Source: an uncultured Aliarcobacter sp. (GTDB taxonomy: Bacteria; Campylobacterota; Campylobacteria; Campylobacterales; Arcobacteraceae). Taken from it: DNA of 64,000 nt. This document shows, in pieces, positions 38,407-57,941 of the stretch. The number at the start of each line of letters is the position of its first letter. Position 1 is the stretch's first letter. The stretch is taken from NCBI GenBank assembly GCA_963664305.2, contig CAXXLV010000002.1, positions 736,001-800,000 of the forward strand, given 5' to 3'. The notes under the pieces were generated by a model that saw only the letters and a list, made by a program, of their open reading frames with translations, was not told where the DNA came from and did no database searches. Position numbers and translations under genes: made by a program.

Positions 38407-38985
38407 ATGATTGAAAAAGATACTATAAAATTACTCTCTGATTTATCTTTAACAATGTTTAGTAAAAACTTTTTTGGTATCTATCATGGTGCTATATCTA
38501 CAAAGATTGATCAATATAATTTTATAATAAATACTAGCGATGCAATTTTTGATAAAATGGATGAAAAATCATTTTGTGCTTTAAATATAAATAAACAAGA
38601 TTATAGATGGAATATTGCAAGTATGGAATCAGATATTCATGCAACAATTTATGCAAATATCCATGAAGCAAAATATATAGCATTTGGAATGCCAATTTAT
38701 ACAACTGCTTATACTTTTGAACATGATAAAATCGTTTTTGAAGATTTTTTTGGAAAAACAATTTTTGGAGAGATTGATATATATAATCCTGGTGATTTTT
38801 CAACATGGTATAAAAGAAACGCTCTTGAAATTACTAAATATTTAAAAGAATCAAATAATAATATTATGGTAATAAAAGGTATAGGTACTTATGTATATGA
38901 TAGAGACGTTCATGAACTAGTAAAAAAGATTGCAATTCTTGAAAATTCATGCAGACTTTTAAGTATAAAAAGCTCTTTCCAATAA
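38407..38985 (+). CDS. class II aldolase/adducin-family protein
   Basis: ASMESDIHATIY motif and fold pattern; metal-binding His residues partly absent. Confidence 0.75.
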   Translation: MIEKDTIKLLSDLSLTMFSKNFFGIYHGAISTKIDQYNFIINTSDAIFDKMDEKSFCALNINKQDYRWNIASMESDIHATIYANIHEAKYIAFGMPIYTTAYTFEHDKIVFEDFFGKTIFGEIDIYNPGDFSTWYKRNALEITKYLKESNNNIMVIKGIGTYVYDRDVHELVKKIAILENSCRLLSIKSSFQ

Positions 38986-39106
38986 AAAAAAGTAAATCTT
39001 GATTATTTTTCTTGTAATTTCAGCTTTAAACCCCGAAATTTTAGCTATTTCAAAGCTTAAATACTATAAAGTTTTCACAATTTAATTTTATACAAGGAGT
39101 TCATCC

Positions 39107-39385
39107 ATGAACAAGGCAGAATTTATCGATGCAGTAGCTGCAAAAGCTGGTTTATCTAAAAAAGATGCAAAAGGTGCTGTTGATGCTGTTTTAGACACAA
39201 TTACTGAATCTTTAGTAAAAAAAGAATCTGTAAGCTTTATTGGATTCGGTACATTTGCAGTTGCAGATAGAGCTGCAAGAACAGCAAAAGTTCCAGGTAC
39301 TGATAAAACTGTTGAAGTACCAGCTACAACTGTTGCAAAATTTAAAGTTGGAAAAGCTCTTAAAGAAGCTGTATCAGCAAAATAA
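39107..39385 (+). CDS. hup: DNA-binding protein HU
   Basis: MNKAEFIDAVA, IGFGTF, FKVGKALKEAV. Confidence 0.97.
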   Translation: MNKAEFIDAVAAKAGLSKKDAKGAVDAVLDTITESLVKKESVSFIGFGTFAVADRAARTAKVPGTDKTVEVPATTVAKFKVGKALKEAVSAK

Positions 39386-39396
39386 TCTCTTCTTCT

Positions 39397-39431
39397 AAAA
39401 AGAATCCATTTTTTAATGGGTTCTTTTTTTT
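39397..39431 (+). terminator. Rho-independent terminator of hup
   Basis: aaaaagaatccatt-tttt-aatgggttctttttttt. Confidence 0.75.
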
Positions 39432-39445
39432 ATTCTCTAAAAAAT

Positions 39446-39486
39446 GCCGCTATGGTGAAATTGGTAGACACAAGGGATTCAAAATC
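39446..39486 (+). pseudogene. 5' half of tRNA-Leu(CAA) truncated in the anticodon arm; putative att junction
   Basis: GCCGCTA-TG-GTGAAATTGGTAGACAC-A-AGGGA-TTCAAAA-TC, then non-tRNA sequence; no T-arm, 3' acceptor strand or CCA follows. Confidence 0.85.
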
Positions 39487-39534
39487 GCAAGAGAAAGTAA
39501 TTTAAAAGCCTATAAATAGGTTTTAATTTGTTTT

Positions 39535-39553
39535 AGGTACGTAAAAAAGGTAC
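39535..39553. repeat. AGGTAC direct repeat (13-bp period), putative integrase arm-type sites
   Basis: aggtac-gtaaaaa-aggtac about 50 bp inside the junction. Confidence 0.45.
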
Positions 39554-39568
39554 ACAATTTATTTATAT

Positions 39569-39652
39569 GGCTCTGTGGCGGAATTGGTAGACGCGTACGA
39601 TTCAAAATCGTATTCCACTGGAGTGCCGGTTCGATCCCGGCCAGGGCTACCA
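39569..39652 (+). tRNA. tRNA-Leu(CAA), complete, element-borne
   Basis: Acceptor GGCTCTG/CAGGGCT+ACCA, D-arm GCGGAATTGGTAGACGC, anticodon arm TACGA-TTCAAAA-TCGTA, variable arm, T-arm GCCGG-TTCGATC-CCGGC. Confidence 0.95.
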
Positions 39653-39659
39653 TAATTAA

Positions 39660-39845
39660 TTATGATAGATTATCCTCGATATAATTGAGTACATCATCTC
39701 TAAGTATAAAATGTTTTACACCCACTTTAAATGATCTTAACTTTTTAAGTTTAATTAATTTTTTTGCAGTTGTTACTTTTATAAAACCTAATTCATCTAA
39801 TTCTTTCAATGAAAAAGAAATTCTTCTTGGTAATAATTCTTCCAT
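39660..39845 (-). CDS. excisionase-like HTH (HTH_17/MerR-like) protein
   Basis: 61 aa, basic; SLKEL...VTTAKKLIK..KLRSFKVG.KHFI.RDDVLNYI; adjacent to the att junction. Confidence 0.75.
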   Translation of the reverse strand: MEELLPRRISFSLKELDELGFIKVTTAKKLIKLKKLRSFKVGVKHFILRDDVLNYIEDNLS

Positions 39846-39846
39846 T

Positions 39847-41040
39847 TTATACTCCTACTTTATCATCGTTTAGCACTTTTGCAAGTTTTTCTGTTTCTTT
39901 TTCAATCCAATAAAAAATTGAATTTTTCTCACTTGCAACTTTTTCATAATTCCATTTTCCTTTATTTCCCCAGATTTGTAGCCATTTTATAGCCCTTTTA
40001 TCTCCAAGTCCAATAGATTCTCTTACAATTTTAGTTTCCTTCATCAAATCACTCTGATTAATTTTTTCATTAAGATCTTTTAAAATATCACTTACAATTT
40101 TTATAAAAAAATATTCTTGCTGACTGATATTTGATTCTTCAAAATCTACTTCAATCAAAGAAATCGTTTCCTCCTCATATTGAAAAGCCTTCGATTGAAT
40201 TAAATTATCTCGATCTTTTTTAACATGAAATAGCCAAGTATTACTTTGATCATTCTTAGTGATCAAAATTTGATAATCAAGATCTCTTTTCCATTCAAAA
40301 CTTCCGTGATAATCCGCAGTTTGTCCATCTCTAACACGATGTGAATGATGGATTATTATTGGTGTTGAACCTTGACTTCTAAGAATTCTAATTACATCAA
40401 ATAATTCTTTTAATTTTACTCTTTCTTTTCTACTTCCATCATATACAAAATGAGAGCCACTATCTATCACAATCATTTTACCTTTATTTTTATCTCCATC
40501 TAAAACAAGTTCTTTTAAAGCGTCTATTGCTTCCATTTCTTGTATAATTTCATTGCCAAGTAGGTAATCAAATTTTCCATCTCCCCATTTTTCTGCAAGT
40601 TGATCATATCTTCGTTTTTTTAAACTACTTAAACAATTATCAAAATCAAAGAAAATTGCACCACTTATATTCTTATTTTCTAATCCATAATTTGCAAAAG
40701 CAGTGCACATTAATGTTTTTCCTATTCCAGTGTCTCCAAATAACATAATATTTTTTCCTGATTCAAGTAAATTAGGATAAATAAATTGTGGATTTTCCTC
40801 TATCTTAGAAGTTTTTTCCAAACTTAATCTAAATTTTTTAAGTTTTTCAATCCCTTGTATTTTACTGTTTTGATTTTCAATGTTTAATTCTTCAATTTTT
40901 TTCTGAATTATTTGCCTTTGATTTTCATTTACATGAGAACTTCTTTTCAATTCTTCTAAATCTTTAATTTTTTTACTTTGAATTCTTTTTTTTATAACTT
41001 CATATTCAATTTTTTCAATTTCAATATTTAAATTTTCCAT
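39847..41040 (-). CDS. RecA/DnaB-like AAA ATPase (AAA_25 / RepA-helicase-like), probable element replication protein
   Basis: Walker A GDTGIGKT, Walker B IVIDS, IIIHH, YHGS and KKDR motifs. Confidence 0.7.
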   Translation of the reverse strand: MENLNIEIEKIEYEVIKKRIQSKKIKDLEELKRSSHVNENQRQIIQKKIEELNIENQNSKIQGIEKLKKFRLSLEKTSKIEENPQFIYPNLLESGKNIMLFGDTGIGKTLMCTAFANYGLENKNISGAIFFDFDNCLSSLKKRRYDQLAEKWGDGKFDYLLGNEIIQEMEAIDALKELVLDGDKNKGKMIVIDSGSHFVYDGSRKERVKLKELFDVIRILRSQGSTPIIIHHSHRVRDGQTADYHGSFEWKRDLDYQILITKNDQSNTWLFHVKKDRDNLIQSKAFQYEEETISLIEVDFEESNISQQEYFFIKIVSDILKDLNEKINQSDLMKETKIVRESIGLGDKRAIKWLQIWGNKGKWNYEKVASEKNSIFYWIEKETEKLAKVLNDDKVGV

Positions 41041-41042
41041 CT

Positions 41043-41732
41043 TTAGGCAATCTCTTCTTTTATATAAAAATATAAGTAAAGCTGATTATTTATTCTTTTT
41101 CTTAGATTCTTAAATTGTGATGATAATTCTGATTCAATAAAATAAGAAAGATTTATATCTAATTTTTCACTAAGTTCTTTTATCTCTTCGAATGTAAGTT
41201 CAAATTTACTTTCTAAAGTTTTGATATGTTCAATAATAAGATTTGGCTCATCTTTTGCTAATTTTTTTAAATCTCTCACTGTAAAATCAATTTCATGATT
41301 TTCATATATGTCAGCCATAATCCAAATTTGAAAATTTAAAAGATTAATTTTTCTCTTTGAATCGAAAAGATTCTTAATATTATTTAGTAAACGCTGTTTA
41401 ATTTTATTAAAAACTTTAATATTACTATCTTCCTTATTTTCAAAAAAGCATTTTTTATTTTTTGTAATACTTTTTTTTATCTGTCTCAATGTTGCTTCAA
41501 TAGCCAACTTATAGCATAATTCAAAATCTATTTGATTTAAATATCCTCCTGTTTTATAAAAAAATTCTTCAACTTCTTCTTTCATTAACATATAAGTTAT
41601 TGAATCAACATTTGTTAATTCTTCTATCCAATCACTTTTTGTGAATGCATTAAATAGAAATGAAAATTGATTTTTATTTCTTTTTTTGCTATTATCGTTA
41701 GAAAAAGATTTTAATTGTGCATTTTTTCTCAT
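41043..41732 (-). CDS. hypothetical protein
   Basis: 229-aa ORF with AAGGA RBS, 2 bp upstream of the ATPase gene. Confidence 0.7.
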   Translation of the reverse strand: MRKNAQLKSFSNDNSKKRNKNQFSFLFNAFTKSDWIEELTNVDSITYMLMKEEVEEFFYKTGGYLNQIDFELCYKLAIEATLRQIKKSITKNKKCFFENKEDSNIKVFNKIKQRLLNNIKNLFDSKRKINLLNFQIWIMADIYENHEIDFTVRDLKKLAKDEPNLIIEHIKTLESKFELTFEEIKELSEKLDINLSYFIESELSSQFKNLRKRINNQLYLYFYIKEEIA

Positions 41733-47071: not shown

Positions 47072-48550
47072 TTACTTTATCTTTCTTAAGTTCTCTAATA
47101 TCTTCACCATTGCCAAAGTATCCAGTTTGCAATACTCTAAAAGTGAGTTTCTTAGTTTTAGTTTCTCTTTTTCATCTAGTGAACCTAGTCTTGAAAAAGC
47201 ATTCATAGCTTGGCTTCCATTTTGAACACCATCAAGTTCTTTGTAGGCTTTCTCAAACTCTGGAACAAGTGCTGGAAGTACATATTTGATAGAGTAACTT
47301 CCTTGCATAGCTGGAGTTACATACCACTTTTTTTGAAAAGGTACCATGAGGTCTTGCATATTTTCATTTATAGCCAATAAGTGTCCACTAAACTCTTCAA
47401 ATAATGTTGCCAATCTTTTTATAACACCTTTTTCAAAACTCATGTTATAAGCTAATACAGTTACATCACTTGGAATATCTTCACATAGTCTAAGAGCGAG
47501 TTCATATCTACTATCAACACTATCTTGTGCTAAATACTCTTTGTGTTCTAATGTTCCATCTTCATATTCAATATGAAGTGAGTATTGAAATGGTATTTGC
47601 TCAAAAGGTTTTATACCTTTAAACTGTGGTATTGCTTGTTGATAGGTTTCAAAGTCTAAATGATATATTGGGTAAGTAAGACTTTGTAAAAATGATTTAA
47701 TATTTTCTATATCTATATATGTGATTTTTGATTTATAGTTTTCAACAGCTTGTGCTTGAATAGAAGTCATATCAAAGTCATGTGGTACATCATCTATATT
47801 TATAATACCTCTTTTATAAAGTTCAATTTGTTTTTTACTTCCAAGATTAAAAATATTAAATATAGAATAATCAGGTATTTGTCTTTGAACTTTCCAACAA
47901 TACTCTTTTCCATCACATTCATAAGGACTATTACAATGTTTACCTATATCTATATTTGGTTCGTTTTCTTTATCATTTAAATATGTTTCAAACTCTTTTA
48001 AAATATTTGGAATATTTGATTGCATTGATATAACATCATTTGTAACATCAACTATTTTAAAAAGTTGATGTATATCTAAGTCATCACCTCTTATATATTC
48101 ATTATTTATATAAATTACATTTGCACTTTTTATTTTTAAACCTAAATTTTTAAGTACATAATACTGAATAGATACATCATGTAAATATATATCTTTTACT
48201 TCAGTAGAACTTTTAACTTCATAAATAGAGACTTCACCATTAGAAATAGTTAAAATATCTACCATAATTAAAATACCTGAAAAGTTAAAAGTAGCTTCAT
48301 AGATATTCTCTATTCCCTCATCAAGTAACTGTTTTGTAGTAGCTATCATCTCATCATAGTTTTTTGAATATGGCACTTCTTTTCCATCAGGGAAAAGCTG
48401 ACAAGCAAAATCTCCAACTATGTTTCCAGTTTCAAATATAGCTTGGGCTGATTCATCTGGTGGTGTTAATACACTTGGCTTATATTTTTTAAGCCAAAGT
48501 GCTTTGGGGCATTGAATGCCTTTTGTGTAGAGGGATTTAGATAGGTTCAT
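47072..48550 (-). CDS. DUF2779-domain protein (Cas4/RecB-like N-terminus plus RNase H/DEDD-like C-terminus)
   Basis: LSKS...QCPKALWL, VDIL...YEVKS, CNSPYEC....YC; LDFET...PFQYSLH...YNMSFE...SYSIKYVLPAL...YCKLDT. Confidence 0.85.
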   Translation of the reverse strand: MNLSKSLYTKGIQCPKALWLKKYKPSVLTPPDESAQAIFETGNIVGDFACQLFPDGKEVPYSKNYDEMIATTKQLLDEGIENIYEATFNFSGILIMVDILTISNGEVSIYEVKSSTEVKDIYLHDVSIQYYVLKNLGLKIKSANVIYINNEYIRGDDLDIHQLFKIVDVTNDVISMQSNIPNILKEFETYLNDKENEPNIDIGKHCNSPYECDGKEYCWKVQRQIPDYSIFNIFNLGSKKQIELYKRGIINIDDVPHDFDMTSIQAQAVENYKSKITYIDIENIKSFLQSLTYPIYHLDFETYQQAIPQFKGIKPFEQIPFQYSLHIEYEDGTLEHKEYLAQDSVDSRYELALRLCEDIPSDVTVLAYNMSFEKGVIKRLATLFEEFSGHLLAINENMQDLMVPFQKKWYVTPAMQGSYSIKYVLPALVPEFEKAYKELDGVQNGSQAMNAFSRLGSLDEKEKLKLRNSLLEYCKLDTLAMVKILENLRKIK

Positions 48551-51063
48551 TAATTAATCTTATTATTAATTTCATCAATTAATATTGTAGACATTTCAAA
48601 AGATTCTAAATCTTGTTTTTTTAACCATTCTTTACATTCTGCTCTTGTCATACTTGAGGTAGGTGTATATTCTGATAATAATATAGCCGTATTTCGACTA
48701 AGTCCTAGTTCAATAAATGATAGTTGAGTTTTCTGTGAAACACCAAATTCTAACCAAATAGTTAATTCAGGAATTTCTTCTAATAATTTTTCTTTTCCTT
48801 TTTCTTTCAAAACCAATCTTAAAATATCCATATAGCAAGATGAATATTTAGCAAATTTAAATCTAGCATATGTTTCTATATCTGCCATTACATCTCTAAT
48901 AACACTATCTCTTTTTTTTCTTTTACCCCAGTATTTTAAGCTTTTTTGTATCATAAAAGATAACTTATAACCTCTTATCCATCTAACAATTAAAGAAGCA
49001 TGATAATAAGATACTCCATTAAAATCTCCAGAAAGATGAGTATTTACTATTTCCACAATTTTTTGAAATGACTCTACAGCGTTATCAGAGTGAATATCAT
49101 CAGGAATAAATTTTTTAAACTTTGTTTCACTATTTAAAAACAGATATAATTCCTGTTGAGCAATAGGACTAATACCTACATGTTTTTTTAATAATGCATC
49201 AGGAATAGTTATGTTTTCTTTCAATTTCGAGAAAGTAGATTCAAGCTGTTTTTCTTTTTTTTCATCTTTTATAAGATTACTTAACTTATTATCTAGCCAC
49301 CTTGTATAATAAAAATTAAATGCATACTCGAATGACATATTATTATTTTTTGATAACTCTTCTCTTGGTGTTCCCTTATCTATAAAAGCTAAAAATTCAT
49401 CAAAATTATTATTAATAATTGTTGTCGCTTTAATGATTTCATTTTTCTTATTTTGTAAAGAAGGTATAGTATTCCATTTATTCGTATCTATACAAATAAT
49501 ATTACCTTGAAATTCTTTACCTAATCTTCCTGCTCGCCCTGCTAAGTTCCAAAAATCAGTTTGTGTCATATCTAATTTTGTTGCCCTTTTAGGTTTTCTA
49601 ATAAAAATATTTTTTGCTGGTAAATTAACTCCTTCTAGTAATGTTGAAGTGCAAAAAATATATTTTATTTCACCTTGTTCAAATAGCTTTTCTATTTCTT
49701 GTCGAATTATTAATGGCATATTTCCATAATGAAAAGCAATTCTCTTTCCTAAAACTTTTACTAAATTATAATTTGGATGAATACTATCTTTTACTAGTTT
49801 AATCAATTCGTTAATTTTCTTATTATCTGTAACAATATCATCTATTAAAATATTGAAAAGCTTAATTGCATGTTCTTCCGTATAAGAAGGTTTATATTGA
49901 TATATTAAATTACCTCCTTCTTTATTAGCAAGTTTTTGAATAATTTTTACTAATCTTTGAGCTTCTTGAATACTTTCATCAAAACTAAAATTAGCAATTT
50001 TAAACTGTCCAAAATTACTAACTAAATCTATTTTCCAGTTTTTAGTACTGCCAGATTCCGAAGATACAAATAATAGATTTTGATTAACTGCTATATAATC
50101 TTTATTAACTTTATCATGTTTTTTATTTTCAATATTAGGCAAATTTTCAAATAATATTTCTGGATTTTTAGTAAAAGGTGAAGCAAATATAGTTTGAATA
50201 TTTTCATTATTTTCAATTACTTCTATAAGTTTTTCTTCAACTAATATACCTCTATGTCCTTGTTCTACTTGTTGTGCTTCATCAACAATAAGTGTATCAA
50301 TCTTAGTTTGATTATCAACTAAAAACCAATGTAATCTTTCTTGAGTAAACACAAAAATTTTTTTTGAAAAAGTTTCTTCAGGAATCTTTGGTACTGTAGA
50401 TAAATATATATTTTCAAGATTTTCTTTTTTTAATAGTTTTCTTATATCATTTTCAACTTGATTTATTAAAGCTCTTGTTGGCACTAAATATATAATAGTC
50501 TCATCATTACTATTTATTATTTTATCTAAAAGAATCTGACTTAGAATAAATGATTTTCCAGAAGAAGTAGGTGAAGATATACTAATAAATTGATTACTTT
50601 TAACTTTTGAATATACTTCACTTTGAAAACTATTCAAAGAAAGAACTTTACCATTTATTAGGATAGTATTGTGTAAATTGTTATTAATAATCTTCAATTG
50701 TAAAATTGAAGATAACTTTTCAAAATAATTTTTTTCAATTAAATTTTTATCTATAGCTAACTCAATTGTTCTATTGTTTGTTAAATTATTTAAAATTACA
50801 GCACAGGACTCTTTCTGTACAATATTTGAATCTTCATAGTTAATTATGGTTTGTGCAATTCTTAAAGCAGTTTCCATATGTAATGTTTCATTAGACTTTG
50901 ATAAAATACTTGCTATTGAAATTACATTATTAATATCTATTGTTTCATGTAAATTATTTTGAAGTTTAGTAAATTGACTAAGAACTGAATATCGTAAAAG
51001 TTTCTTATATTGGTCTTGAAAACTGTCAAGAGAATAAAGCTTTGTTGAAATATTTTCATTCAT
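48550..51063 (-). CDS. hamB: Hachiman HamB-like SF2 (Ski2-type DEAD/DEAH) helicase
   Basis: SPTSSGKS, VPTRALI, TQER, DEAQ, TSTLLEGVNLPA, NLAGRAGRLG; directly downstream of a DUF1837 gene. Confidence 0.85.
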   Translation of the reverse strand: MNENISTKLYSLDSFQDQYKKLLRYSVLSQFTKLQNNLHETIDINNVISIASILSKSNETLHMETALRIAQTIINYEDSNIVQKESCAVILNNLTNNRTIELAIDKNLIEKNYFEKLSSILQLKIINNNLHNTILINGKVLSLNSFQSEVYSKVKSNQFISISSPTSSGKSFILSQILLDKIINSNDETIIYLVPTRALINQVENDIRKLLKKENLENIYLSTVPKIPEETFSKKIFVFTQERLHWFLVDNQTKIDTLIVDEAQQVEQGHRGILVEEKLIEVIENNENIQTIFASPFTKNPEILFENLPNIENKKHDKVNKDYIAVNQNLLFVSSESGSTKNWKIDLVSNFGQFKIANFSFDESIQEAQRLVKIIQKLANKEGGNLIYQYKPSYTEEHAIKLFNILIDDIVTDNKKINELIKLVKDSIHPNYNLVKVLGKRIAFHYGNMPLIIRQEIEKLFEQGEIKYIFCTSTLLEGVNLPAKNIFIRKPKRATKLDMTQTDFWNLAGRAGRLGKEFQGNIICIDTNKWNTIPSLQNKKNEIIKATTIINNNFDEFLAFIDKGTPREELSKNNNMSFEYAFNFYYTRWLDNKLSNLIKDEKKEKQLESTFSKLKENITIPDALLKKHVGISPIAQQELYLFLNSETKFKKFIPDDIHSDNAVESFQKIVEIVNTHLSGDFNGVSYYHASLIVRWIRGYKLSFMIQKSLKYWGKRKKRDSVIRDVMADIETYARFKFAKYSSCYMDILRLVLKEKGKEKLLEEIPELTIWLEFGVSQKTQLSFIELGLSRNTAILLSEYTPTSSMTRAECKEWLKKQDLESFEMSTILIDEINNKIN

Positions 51064-51066
51064 TAT

Positions 51067-51993
51067 CTAAACTCCTAATTCTGCTAAGAAATTATCTCTA
51101 AACTCTTGAACACTTGGAAATGGTAAAATAAACATATGTATTATAAAACTATCCAAATAAATATGTTCATTAATTTGCTCTTTAACCTTAGCTTTCCAAT
51201 CTGATATTTTTAAATTAACTTCATCAATAACATCTTGAATAATTTTTGAATTAGGAGTATTAGGATATTTATTAAAATCAAATCCTACTAAAGCAACACC
51301 TCTATAATTTACACTATTATAATTTGGGTGATTTTTATCAAAATAGTTTACAAGTGCATTTTGGAATTCTTCATCTCTAACATCAATATTGTCATGTATT
51401 AATTCTATATCTCTATCTGTAGATGAATTATTTTGTAAGAAATTATTTAAACTTTCAAAACATTCTTTTATTGCAGTTCCATAAGTTTGATGAAGCTTAG
51501 ATTCACCCCAATATACTTCTAATTGACCATTTTCTCCTAATGTACAATGTATTCCATCTACACCATGATAATGAACATGTTGACTAGTTTTAAGTGGCAT
51601 TTTACAAATCAATTGTGGTATTTTTAAAAATTCTTCTACTAAAATATACAATAATAATTCACCACCTTCACCTGAAGTTTTTAAATGTGTAAAAAGGTTA
51701 ACAGCTTTTTCTCTAAGTTCAAGAGCATGTGCAAATCCACCTTCATCAGCATCTTTTTTTTGTGCAGCCATTATTTCACTTTTAGGTATTGCATAGTTTA
51801 TTACTCGATGAGATAAATATTTTGCAAAATCTTTAACCCTTGGTAATCCATTACCATTTAATTCTAAACAATGAACACAAGTAGTAGTTTTTGTATCATC
51901 AATTTCAGAATGAAGTTCTATAGTTTTTATATGTGCATTTATATTATCAGATTGACTACTTATTAATTCATCAAATTTTTCTCTTGTTAACAT
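51067..51993 (-). CDS. hamA: Hachiman HamA (DUF1837) nuclease
   Basis: SGEGGELLLY, PQLICKM.LKTS, HGVDGIH, WGESKL, LPFPSV. Confidence 0.88.
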   Translation of the reverse strand: MLTREKFDELISSQSDNINAHIKTIELHSEIDDTKTTTCVHCLELNGNGLPRVKDFAKYLSHRVINYAIPKSEIMAAQKKDADEGGFAHALELREKAVNLFTHLKTSGEGGELLLYILVEEFLKIPQLICKMPLKTSQHVHYHGVDGIHCTLGENGQLEVYWGESKLHQTYGTAIKECFESLNNFLQNNSSTDRDIELIHDNIDVRDEEFQNALVNYFDKNHPNYNSVNYRGVALVGFDFNKYPNTPNSKIIQDVIDEVNLKISDWKAKVKEQINEHIYLDSFIIHMFILPFPSVQEFRDNFLAELGV

Positions 51994-53830: not shown

Positions 53831-54652
53831 CTAAATAATTTCCAAAACACTCGTCCCATCACCCTTATGTTCAACCTTTATCTGCAATGGAATTCGCTCT
53901 TTTAGTGCTTCCACATGGGAAATCACACCTACCATCTTTCCTGAACTTTGTAGTTGATTTAGTGCTAGTTCTAAACTATCAGCATCTAGTGTCCCAAACC
54001 CTTCATATAAGAAAAGTGAATCTATACTTATCTTTTGACTTGCAAGGGCTGAAAGTCCAAGAGCAAGTGAAAGACTTACTATAAAACTTTCCCCTCCTGA
54101 GAGTGTACTTACAGGTCTTAATACATCCCCTTGAAAACCATCAATTATTTCTATTTCAAATAATTTATTTGAATCACTACTTCTTTGAAGTTCATATCTT
54201 GGACTTAGTATTTGTAAATGTTTATTTGATATATAGATAAGTTGGTCTAAAGTAATACCTTGGGCAAATTTAGCAAATTTATCTCCACTTGCTAAACCTA
54301 CCATTTCATTTAGTTTTATCCATACTTTAAATGCTTCTTTTTTCTTCTCTAACTCTTTGATTTTATCTTCATGTTTTTTCATATTTGAAGCATTGATTTC
54401 AAGCTCTTTTTCTAAACTACCTATTGATTTTTGAAGTTCGTCAATAGCTGTTTGTAACTCTTTTGATTCAACATAATAGATAATTTGTGGAGTTCCAGTA
54501 TCAAAAATATCTCCTGATATAACTAAAACTTCAACTTGTTTTTCTTTTATAATTTCTAAAAGCCAAGAAAGAAAAGCTTCATGCTCTTCAGCTCTACTTT
54601 TCCCCATAAAATTTTGACCAAGATGCCAATCAGATGTATGTAATAAACGCAT
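53831..54652 (-). pseudogene. in-frame SbcD(N-terminus)-SbcC(C-terminus) deletion chimera
   Basis: LHTSDWHLG and SGDIFD (SbcD/Mre11 motifs I-II) joined at about 54487 to coiled coil, LSGGE, LFLYEGFGTLD and ISHV (SbcC/Rad50 C-terminus). Confidence 0.88.
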
Positions 54653-55094
54653 AAATATCCTATACAAACTTTATACATTTATTATAACTATCAAATAACT
54701 CTTTTTTGACTCTTTTTTATTATTAGATTATTTTAAAACTTAAAATAGAAAAAAAATTATATGTTTATACTATTTTTAGCTAGAAAATAAATTATTAGAA
54801 ATTTAAAAGTTAATTGGAGAAAATACATATAAACTTAATATTTTTTTATTCATTTATATTATTAAATTAACTAACTATCTTTTAATAATAACTATTTTGA
54901 ATAAAACTAAAGAAACAATAATCTAATATTTAACACAAGTAAAAGTGTTGTACAATCACATAATTTTTCTTCTCCCTTATATCATATTTTCTAAATTTTA
55001 AACCATTATTATGCTAATAAAATACTATTAAACTAATAGTAAATTAATATCACTTTATATATAATTTAATACTAATAATATAAAAGGAATTTGA

Positions 55095-55757
55095 ATGATA
55101 ATTTCAGTGTGTAATGAAAAAGGTGGTAGTGGAAAAACTACAATTGCCTTAAATATTGCAGTTAAACTTGGTCTTTTAAAAGAAGATACTTTATTAATTG
55201 ATGCAGACCCTCAAAGAAGTATTGAAGTATTTACTAATATTAGAGCTAATGAAAATATTGATCTTATTTTTAATACTGTTTCAAAATTTGGAAGCAGTCT
55301 TGGTAAAGAAGTTAAAAGCTTACAAAATAAATATTCTTCAATTGTAATTGATACAGGTGGTAGAGATAGTGAAGAAATGAGACAAGCATTAGCAATTAGT
55401 GATTTAGTAATTATTCCAACACTTCCAAGTGATTTAGATATTGCTGTTTTAAATAAAATGATAAATCTTTTTAATCAAGCTAAAGCTTTTAACCCAAATG
55501 CTAAAGCATTAATTACTATTTCTAAAGCTAGCCCAAATCCTTTTCTAACTAAAAAAATTAAAGATTTAAAAGAATATATTAAAGATAAAAATCTTGAAGA
55601 TATAAAACTTTGTGAAAGTGTAATATTTGAAAGAGAAGCATATAAAAACTCTTTTTCAAATGGTTTAGGTATCTTAGAATTCCTTGATGAAAAAGCTAAA
55701 GCTTATCAAGATTTTAATAACTTCTTTGATGAATTAGTTGAATATGTAAATAATTAG
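55095..55757 (+). CDS. parA: plasmid-type ParA partition ATPase
   Basis: KGGSGKTT, IDADPQ, VIDTGG, IIPTLPS.LD. Confidence 0.92.
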   Translation: MIISVCNEKGGSGKTTIALNIAVKLGLLKEDTLLIDADPQRSIEVFTNIRANENIDLIFNTVSKFGSSLGKEVKSLQNKYSSIVIDTGGRDSEEMRQALAISDLVIIPTLPSDLDIAVLNKMINLFNQAKAFNPNAKALITISKASPNPFLTKKIKDLKEYIKDKNLEDIKLCESVIFEREAYKNSFSNGLGILEFLDEKAKAYQDFNNFFDELVEYVNN

Positions 55758-55825
55758 TTAGTATTTATTTACTAATAAAATAATATTAATATATAAATAA
55801 ATAATAATTAAAATAAAGGTTTAAA

Positions 55826-56119
55826 ATGAAAGAATCAATATTTAAAAAGAATGAAAAAAAATCATTCGCTTTTGTAGAAGATGATAGTTTAGATAATGAA
55901 GTAAAACAATTAGATGAGTTTGTAAGCTCTGCAAGAGGTGAGTCTAAAAAGGTCTTAAACCCTAAAGGTAGACCTAAATTAAATAATGATGAATTAAAAC
56001 AAGAACAAATAGTGATTTATCTTACAAAAGAGCAAAAAGATGAAATCACTAAAAAAGCAAAACAATCATCTTTAAGTGTTTCAAAATATGTAATGCTAAA
56101 GGTTTTTGGGATAAGTTAA
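55826..56119 (+). CDS. ParA partner, putative ribbon-helix-helix centromere-binding protein
   Basis: GRPKL...IVIYLT.EQK...LSVSKYV; follows parA. Confidence 0.65.
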   Translation: MKESIFKKNEKKSFAFVEDDSLDNEVKQLDEFVSSARGESKKVLNPKGRPKLNNDELKQEQIVIYLTKEQKDEITKKAKQSSLSVSKYVMLKVFGIS

Positions 56120-57332: not shown

Positions 57333-57941
57333 TCATCTAATCAAAGCCTCCCTAATCTGCTCATCAGTAGGCTTTATATATCCCATTGTTGTACTTACAT
57401 TTTTATGTCCAACAAATTGGGATATGATTTTTATGTTTATTGATTTACTTCCCATTTCTGTAATTAATCCTTGTCTAAAGCTATGAGAAGAATATCCTTC
57501 TCCTAAAATTTCTTTAATGGTTTTATTTACTTGTTGTATAAACACTATATTATTAATAGAAGTTCTTTTATTTTTATCACTACCTTTTGAAATAATTTTA
57601 TTATCATCAAGTTCATTTTTAAAATCAAATAGTTTTACAAGTTCTTTTTGAAAAGAGTTAGTTAGATATAGTTTTCTTTGAGTAGATGTTTTTGAAATAT
57701 CTAATTTTACATTTCCATCTTGTAATAAATTTTTTATATCTTTTATTTTTAGTTCTTGAACTTCATTTAATCTAAGACCTGTAAAAAATAAAATAGTAAA
57801 AGTTCTAAGAAGATTTTGTTTTGTATTAAATCTAAGATTTTCATCTCCTCTTATAAATGACATTAGTTTTTTATATTCAACTTCAGTGATATTTTCTTTA
57901 ATTCTTTTTATCTCTTTTTTTTCATCAACTTTTTTACTCAT
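57333..57941 (-). CDS. short tyrosine recombinase (catalytic domain only; resolvase-like)
   Basis: TGLRLNE, SKT, HSFR, GHKNVSTTMGY: R-K-H-R-H-Y set intact; 202 aa. Confidence 0.92.
   Translation of the reverse strand: MSKKVDEKKEIKRIKENITEVEYKKLMSFIRGDENLRFNTKQNLLRTFTILFFTGLRLNEVQELKIKDIKNLLQDGNVKLDISKTSTQRKLYLTNSFQKELVKLFDFKNELDDNKIISKGSDKNKRTSINNIVFIQQVNKTIKEILGEGYSSHSFRQGLITEMGSKSINIKIISQFVGHKNVSTTMGYIKPTDEQIREALIR

Follow-up and report, generated by a model that had tools for sequence, protein, structure and literature searches.

An Aliarcobacter defence island that apparently breaks a host tRNA-Leu(CAA) gene and supplies a foreign replacement likely to become permanent

Results

A broken and a complete tRNA-Leu(CAA) gene at the left island end

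The stretch of DNA analysed here (the window) comprises 64,000 nucleotides of the genome of an uncultured Aliarcobacter species (G000); positions refer to the window unless a contig is named. Left of the island described below lies a core host gene (open reading frame 39107–39385, + strand) that we take, from its sequence, to be hup, encoding HU; in most relatives this gene precedes Leu(CAA). Behind it come a terminator-like hairpin (39397–39428, + strand), recognised by consensus match only, and a 41-nt 5′ half of a tRNA-Leu gene (39446–39486, + strand) that ends 2 nt past the 7-nt anticodon loop. After an 82-bp island end (39487–39568, + strand), a complete tRNA-Leu(CAA) gene begins (39569–39652, + strand), called by both ARAGORN and Rfam and carrying A73 and an encoded CCA; the starts of the half and the complete gene are 123 bp apart. 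A preliminary description of this DNA had placed both genes at these positions and had noted that their stems differ, and we found the same: between the two 5′ parts, 10 of 41 positions are mismatched, located in the acceptor, D and anticodon stems. Over its whole length, the island gene differs from the native gene of genome G027 in ~31% of columns, and the two score 54.6 and 55.8 bits, respectively, with Rfam. Minimum-energy folding of the island tRNA gave no cloverleaf (z −1.2), whereas the Rfam alignment does give one, and a promoter scan ahead of the gene found no sigma-70-like promoter above chance. Within the island end, a pair of repeats at 39535–39557, resembling repeats at the far end of the island, probably forms an integrase arm site. 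A 27–30-bp block of this end is common to six related island ends, and the whole arm is 96% identical in G014.

The missing 3′ half of the host gene lies outside the window, at G000:C2:830024–830076, with non-tRNA DNA in front of it and 54,548 bp away core to core, a junction that the preliminary description had predicted. This right junction (attR) consists of the core and the orphan 3′ half. Each host half matches the corresponding part of the intact Leu(CAA) gene of G027, the sister species of G000 on an rpoB tree, with 100% identity. The sequence common to both junctions is limited to 11 bp (39476–39486, + strand; repeated at G000:C2:830024), spans the anticodon loop and 2 bp on each side, and is the likely crossover region; a previously reported 12-mer does occur in both tRNAs, but only 11 bp recur at the far junction. 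Sixteen copies of the 11-mer occur in the genome, with a D-loop ahead in only two and a T-loop behind in only two, indicating that the match of the two halves is not due to chance. DNA 3′ of the orphan half matches the DNA that follows the intact gene of G001, G019 and G028, with no such match in three further genomes tested. Relatives have empty sites, with an intact host-type gene behind hup at 8 of 30 loci.

Neither junction carries a rebuilt tRNA gene, and neither half is called as a gene by ARAGORN or Rfam; a reconstituted host-type gene at the far junction, which the preliminary description had considered as contrary evidence, is absent. ARAGORN reports 54 tRNAs in G000, and the sole Leu(CAA) among them is the island gene at 39569–39652. 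The host gene is broken, as had been claimed, and the only Leu(CAA) gene in the genome comes from the island. A contig from public run X1 (possibly the source sample) covers 38500–41446 without a difference, making misassembly unlikely, and X1 contigs bridge both junctions, again without differences. Run X3, from another study, contains both island ends with few differences; its contigs enter the tRNA halves by at most ~30 bases and were left out of the junction-bridging count. The public runs (X1–X4 and X21) consist of contigs only; they contained no attP or attB joint and no circle, an absence that says nothing about excision.

Elsewhere in G000, ordinary 3′-end duplications of tRNA-Met and tRNA-Glu at G000:C1:185762–185803 and G000:C2:873103–873148 mark two further insertion sites, both restoring. 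The apparent start of another integrase gene, presumably P4-like, lies directly behind the intact Leu(CAA) gene in G027 and G008 (loci L005 and L015). More than one element family may thus use the Leu(CAA) locus as a hot spot.

Integrase and cargo of the island

The island interior (39653–64000, no strand assigned) continues past the window and was characterised by profile searches. A tyrosine integrase, P0001, starts ~120 bp inside attR as an open 441-aa frame (G000:C2:828579–829904, − strand; PF00589, phrog_1). The cargo includes the Hachiman genes hamB and hamA (48550–51993, − strand; PADLOC and Pfam), an Avs2-like protein, PDC-S71 and AbiEii. It also includes a ParA-like ATPase with a small NikA-like protein (55095–56119, + strand), a second, short tyrosine recombinase (57333–57941, − strand), SMI1/KNR4 proteins, a lysozyme, a resolvase and an IS110 transposase. 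No capsid, portal, terminase or tail match was found among the island proteins (overlapping sets of 35 compared with PHROGs, 39 with Pfam and 14 with NCBIfam), only the single lysozyme; nor did Pfam and NCBIfam reveal a relaxase, coupling protein or mating-pair gene in the G000 island, only the NikA-like protein. Judged by these matches, the element is a defence island and not a prophage. The related islands that we inspected carry restriction-modification and other defence genes, and the one in G109 encodes a TrwC relaxase and a coupling protein.

Several further features of these islands were observed. A single frame at 53831–54667 is SbcD-like at its start and SbcC-like at its end and seems to be an sbcDC pair that has suffered a deletion; a whole pair is present in the G003 island. 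The G016 island has a reverse transcriptase gene adjoining a TIR-domain gene (L111:7949–10685). Integrases 54% (L038, G156) and 48% (L039, G198) identical to P0001 lie at the end of an apparent protein-coding gene rather than a tRNA gene.

The same design at Leu(CAA) in the family

At least two matches to a pattern for the Leu(CAA) 5′ half were present in 17 of 184 family genomes. In 13 of the 184, from six genera, a broken resident half is followed 123–147 bp on by a complete, different gene; loci with this design include Aliarcobacter, Arcobacter and Halarcobacter. The other four genomes with two matches had whole genes, contig-edge copies or chance matches. We found the orphan 3′ half in seven of the 13 genomes and a chimeric far end in two; no far junction was found in the remaining four, all drafts (G014, G107, G126 and G197), with a 3′-half pattern that misses long variable arms. 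At least three unrelated replacement types occur among the 13.

Islands in G071 and G083, which have the same integrase family and the same target gene, restore: the 3′ half is duplicated and the host gene is whole. On the integrase tree, these restoring islands are sisters of the replacing islands of G109 and G128, indicating that the design has switched between restoring and replacing at least twice. At locus L125 (G177:C4:52315–53733), an intact host Leu(CAA) gene is followed 1.3 kb on by another complete gene, whose type is the one on the G128 island.

Leu(GAG) as a second target

Leu(GAG) was picked as a negative control and proved to be a second target. By pattern, a broken half plus a replacement is present in 18 of 184 family genomes; with a 49-bp spacing, three more (G012, G024 and G006) were found among 30 genus loci, giving a total of at least 21. 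In three of five genomes checked, an orphan Leu(GAG) 3′ half lies 10–20 kb away, next to a tyrosine integrase from a different family. Several stacked Leu(GAG) halves are present in G130 and in G174.

At loci L378–L397, L144, L146 and L159, we observed this second integrase family with the replacement only 49–84 bp on. At L139 (G034:C8:114138 and 119817), Leu(GAG) is cut in the T arm, and a second copy lies 5.7 kb on. The Leu(GAG) type of G000 (G000:C1:50096–50180, L160) is common to G008 and not to the sister species G027; this gene may itself be a fixed replacement.

The design beyond the family

A pattern scan of 40 of the 64 parts of a species collection gave at least 122 loci, and ARAGORN gave at least 41 with a half followed by a gene, 32 of these 41 being kept by eye and one more being cut by a contig end. 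Loci L235, L253, L259, L261, L294, L298, L299, L315 and L328 were dropped as repeat insertions, gaps, pseudo-duplications or chance matches. The kept loci comprise at least eight from Campylobacterota, five of them repeats of family cases, and at least 25 from five other groups, which we assign to Gammaproteobacteria (15), Alphaproteobacteria (4), Fusobacteriota (3), Bdellovibrionota (2) and Planctomycetota (1). Five outside loci were examined. An orphan 3′ half is present in four (Vibrio europaeus, where it is 8.3 kb away, two Geminicoccus, and Motiliproteus), adjoining a tyrosine integrase in two cases; the fifth is a prophage with portal and terminase genes and with no proper acceptor stem at its far end.

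A search of 377 other Campylobacterota genomes at ~119–149 bp spacing yielded no instance of the design. In a draw from the phylum, 56 of 401 genomes matched, the matches outside the family being whole tandem genes or chance. None of 15 matches in viral contigs was a broken-plus-replacement locus, and the type-B pattern (type B is a Leu(CAA) type described below) gave no match there; the one match in a metagenome scan was a true case. One over-loose pattern matched controls as often as targets, and five of at least 27 matching genomes were examined further.

Break-and-replace as the probable mode of insertion

We consider it probable that the island splits the host Leu(CAA) gene and supplies a replacement, with the foreign gene likely ending up permanent (break-and-replace). 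As read from sequence, the two junctions, the short core, the absence of a rebuilt gene, the single complete gene and the empty sites establish this arrangement, and further support comes from its repeated occurrence, involving two integrase families, at two leucine tRNAs, and from tRNA types that depart from the species and hup trees. In the mechanism that we propose, P0001 would make the crossover at the 11-bp core, and the island tRNA-Leu(CAA) would be expressed, offsetting a fitness cost rather than averting lethality. Once the integrase had been lost and the orphan half then deleted, the foreign gene would be fixed at the native place. We put at somewhat better than even the broader proposal that break-and-replace islands are a standing route of core tRNA exchange between species, each replacement being the next resident and the next target. 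If that route holds, island swapping would account for the turnover of stand-alone Leu(CAA) and Leu(GAG) genes while clustered tRNAs stay fixed.

Turnover of leucine tRNA types

Leu(CAA) genes in the genus fall into six types, with mean distances of 0.07 within and 0.29 between types. Over 22 shared genomes, the mean distance was 0.25 for Leu(CAA) and 0.17 for Leu(GAG); in the same genomes, Leu(TAG) and His had a mean distance of 0.05, and Pro and Arg(TCT) one of 0. Mapping the Leu(CAA) types on an rpoB tree of 39 species required 11 changes (minimum 5; shuffle mean 22). AU tests on this tree, for types named after inspecting the sequences and with the tree seen beforehand, rejected a single clade for types B, C, D and F. 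The tree of the adjacent aldolase and hup genes (35 genomes) resembles the rpoB tree and also rejects one clade for types B, C and D in AU tests, indicating that exchange is confined to the tRNA. G009 and G035, on distant branches, have the same Leu(CAA) gene, 2 nt from the island copy.

Intermediate stages were found for both targets. The broken resident is itself of island type B in G015, in G179 and at L268, a serial stage. In G130, two different broken Leu(GAG) halves are stacked ahead of a third type. G006 keeps a broken native Leu(GAG) half, and in its sister G020 the same foreign type occurs by itself. Stand-alone Leu(GAG) genes in G020 and G032 are 2–3 nt from island-borne copies, and no island DNA was found behind either. 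The sister species G003 and G067 share a 13-kb integrase-less remnant whose gene is the sole ARAGORN Leu(CAA) in the stretch.

At the far end of that remnant (L113 in G003, L114 in G067), the core links a degenerate 5′ half of island type to a 3′ end derived from the host, and an att-like junction lies upstream. This arrangement fits the presence of tandem islands followed by deletion at the core of the island tRNA.

Islands might leave no lasting mark, having captured tRNAs from species to which those types are native, with the patchy distribution of types reflecting ancestral diversity, fast drift of a seldom-used tRNA or island-free transfer. We regard this explanation as unlikely. It is consistent with the residence of type B within one rpoB clade, in 10 of its 16 species, with the strong tree signal that the type labels keep (11 changes against 22 for shuffled labels), and with the absence of any match to the arm of the G000 island at resident type-B loci. 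Moreover, none of types C to F of genus g1 was seen on an island. For type B, the direction can be read either way, and the residents could be donors from which islands captured the gene. The island type at 39569, which the preliminary description had considered might be native in element-free relatives, is indeed resident in 11 of the 39 tree species but is absent as a resident from the closest relatives. By contrast, the near-identical types of G009 and G035 on distant branches, where hup and aldolase follow the species tree, argue against capture without lasting effect, as do the intermediate stages seen in the pair G006 and G020 and in the stacked G130 halves. Under break-and-replace, the tRNA swap likely becomes permanent, with the foreign gene in the native place.

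Dispensability of Leu(CAA)

The preliminary description had suggested that the host depends on the island end. In its strict form, as in mycobacteriophages, Leu(CAA) would be essential and the host would die on imprecise loss of that end. In keeping with such dependence, Leu(CAA) is single-copy in G000, the integrase-less remnant of G003 and G067 has kept its tRNA, and the 5′-half pattern matched 136 of 152 high-quality family genomes. The other 16 had no match, and a second pattern applied to ten of them found no Leu(CAA) in nine and a variant in G132. A general leucine pattern applied to five of those genomes found TAA, TAG and GAG genes and no CAA gene, and five hup loci had no tRNA. G111, the only single-contig genome among five with known contig number, has Leu genes for TAA, TAG and GAG and no tRNA behind hup. 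The failure to find Leu(CAA) in nine of ten rechecked relatives makes strict dependence doubtful, and we now consider it quite improbable.

G000 itself has two Leu(TAA) genes, and TTG accounts for 6.7% of its leucine codons outside the island and 7.4% inside. Leu(UAA) can also read UUG by wobble. In E. coli, the effect of disrupting leuX is described as regulatory and not lethal in the part of a review considered here (PMC11316696). These observations make a fitness cost more likely than lethality as the consequence of losing Leu(CAA).

Anticodon-stem differences and local duplication

The preliminary description had also suggested that the new tRNA might differ in nuclease or integrase sensitivity; on such a reading, its different anticodon stem would hide it from the island's own integrase or from tRNA-cutting nucleases. 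The stem differs from that of the host in 37 of 40 curated cases, with differences at 77 of 120 positions in the outer three pairs against 4 of 80 in the inner two; however, 37/40 is a raw count without a null model, and any two types vary at these positions. Host and island share an identical anticodon loop, genes of the island type have been targeted in G015, in G179 and at L268, and the core in G003 and G067 connects an island-type 5′ half with a 3′ end of host origin. Any such escape therefore has weak support at best, and we judge it very improbable. An assembly artefact, or tandem duplication at the locus followed by decay, would suit the 123-bp distance between the two tRNA starts and has a few parallels in pseudo-duplications among the collection matches. 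We give it virtually no credence: the far junction, with the other half intact next to an integrase at a distance of 54.5 kb, refutes it, the copies are ~31% different, and public-run contigs cross both junctions.

Discussion

Break-and-replace offers a mechanism, with visible intermediates, for the foreign replacement of a core translation gene. The strategy is common in non-phage islands of Arcobacteraceae and also occurs in Gamma- and Alphaproteobacteria, Fusobacteriota, Bdellovibrionota and Planctomycetota. Since the tRNA involved seems dispensable, lethality is apparently not required to keep the strategy. Annotation of such a locus shows one normal tRNA and hides the island, and tools that search for duplicated tRNA ends next to an intact gene would be expected to miss or misplace it. 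In the literature covered, chiefly open-access main texts, we found no account for Arcobacter and none of fixation on a species tree.

The closest known system is the tRNA-dependent lysogeny of the actinobacteriophages Fionnbharth, LeBron and Gaia (Guerrero-Bustamante and Hatfull, 2024; PMC10865867). Like the island, these phages use a tyrosine integrase and a core of ~10 bp in a tRNA gene that is not rebuilt, and they carry a same-isotype tRNA, Gaia too using Leu(CAA). In both systems, closely related integrases either restore or replace, as with G071 and G109, and G083 and G128, here. By contrast, the island has no virion genes, its cargo is defence, and its tRNA is apparently dispensable in the family; its replacement lies directly inside attL, with cores 49–147 bp apart, unlike in the actinophages; and the serial replacement and apparent host fixation seen here are not reported for them in the parts of that paper considered. 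Hence, the island works like tRNA-dependent lysogeny without belonging to it, because it is no phage and its tRNA may not be essential. The 2024 paper asks how far the strategy extends beyond actinophages (PMC10865867).

Prophages of Sinorhizobium meliloti inactivate tRNA-Leu(UAG) and bring their own, and the authors suggest diversification of tRNA genes (PMC11476347). As at our locus, a leucine tRNA is broken centrally and a foreign isoacceptor is supplied; the parts of that study considered describe two prophage cases, without a species-tree test or intermediate stages. A related paper, in the sections considered, has no such case in its prophages (PMC12429752). Prophage Lj965 of Lactobacillus johnsonii likewise leaves the tRNA gene unrebuilt and carries a cognate tRNA, but it is a prophage of Bacillota (cited in PMC10865867). 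Within Campylobacterota, the CJIE/CCIE prophages of Campylobacter adjoin tRNA genes (PMC8955182) and share with the island, as do the canonical islands of G071 and G083, a tRNA gene as target. A canonical restoring attP rebuilds that gene, whereas the G000 island does not, leaving both halves orphan. Compared with tRNA-dependent lysogeny, what differs here is that the tRNA is apparently dispensable and the swap seemingly permanent.
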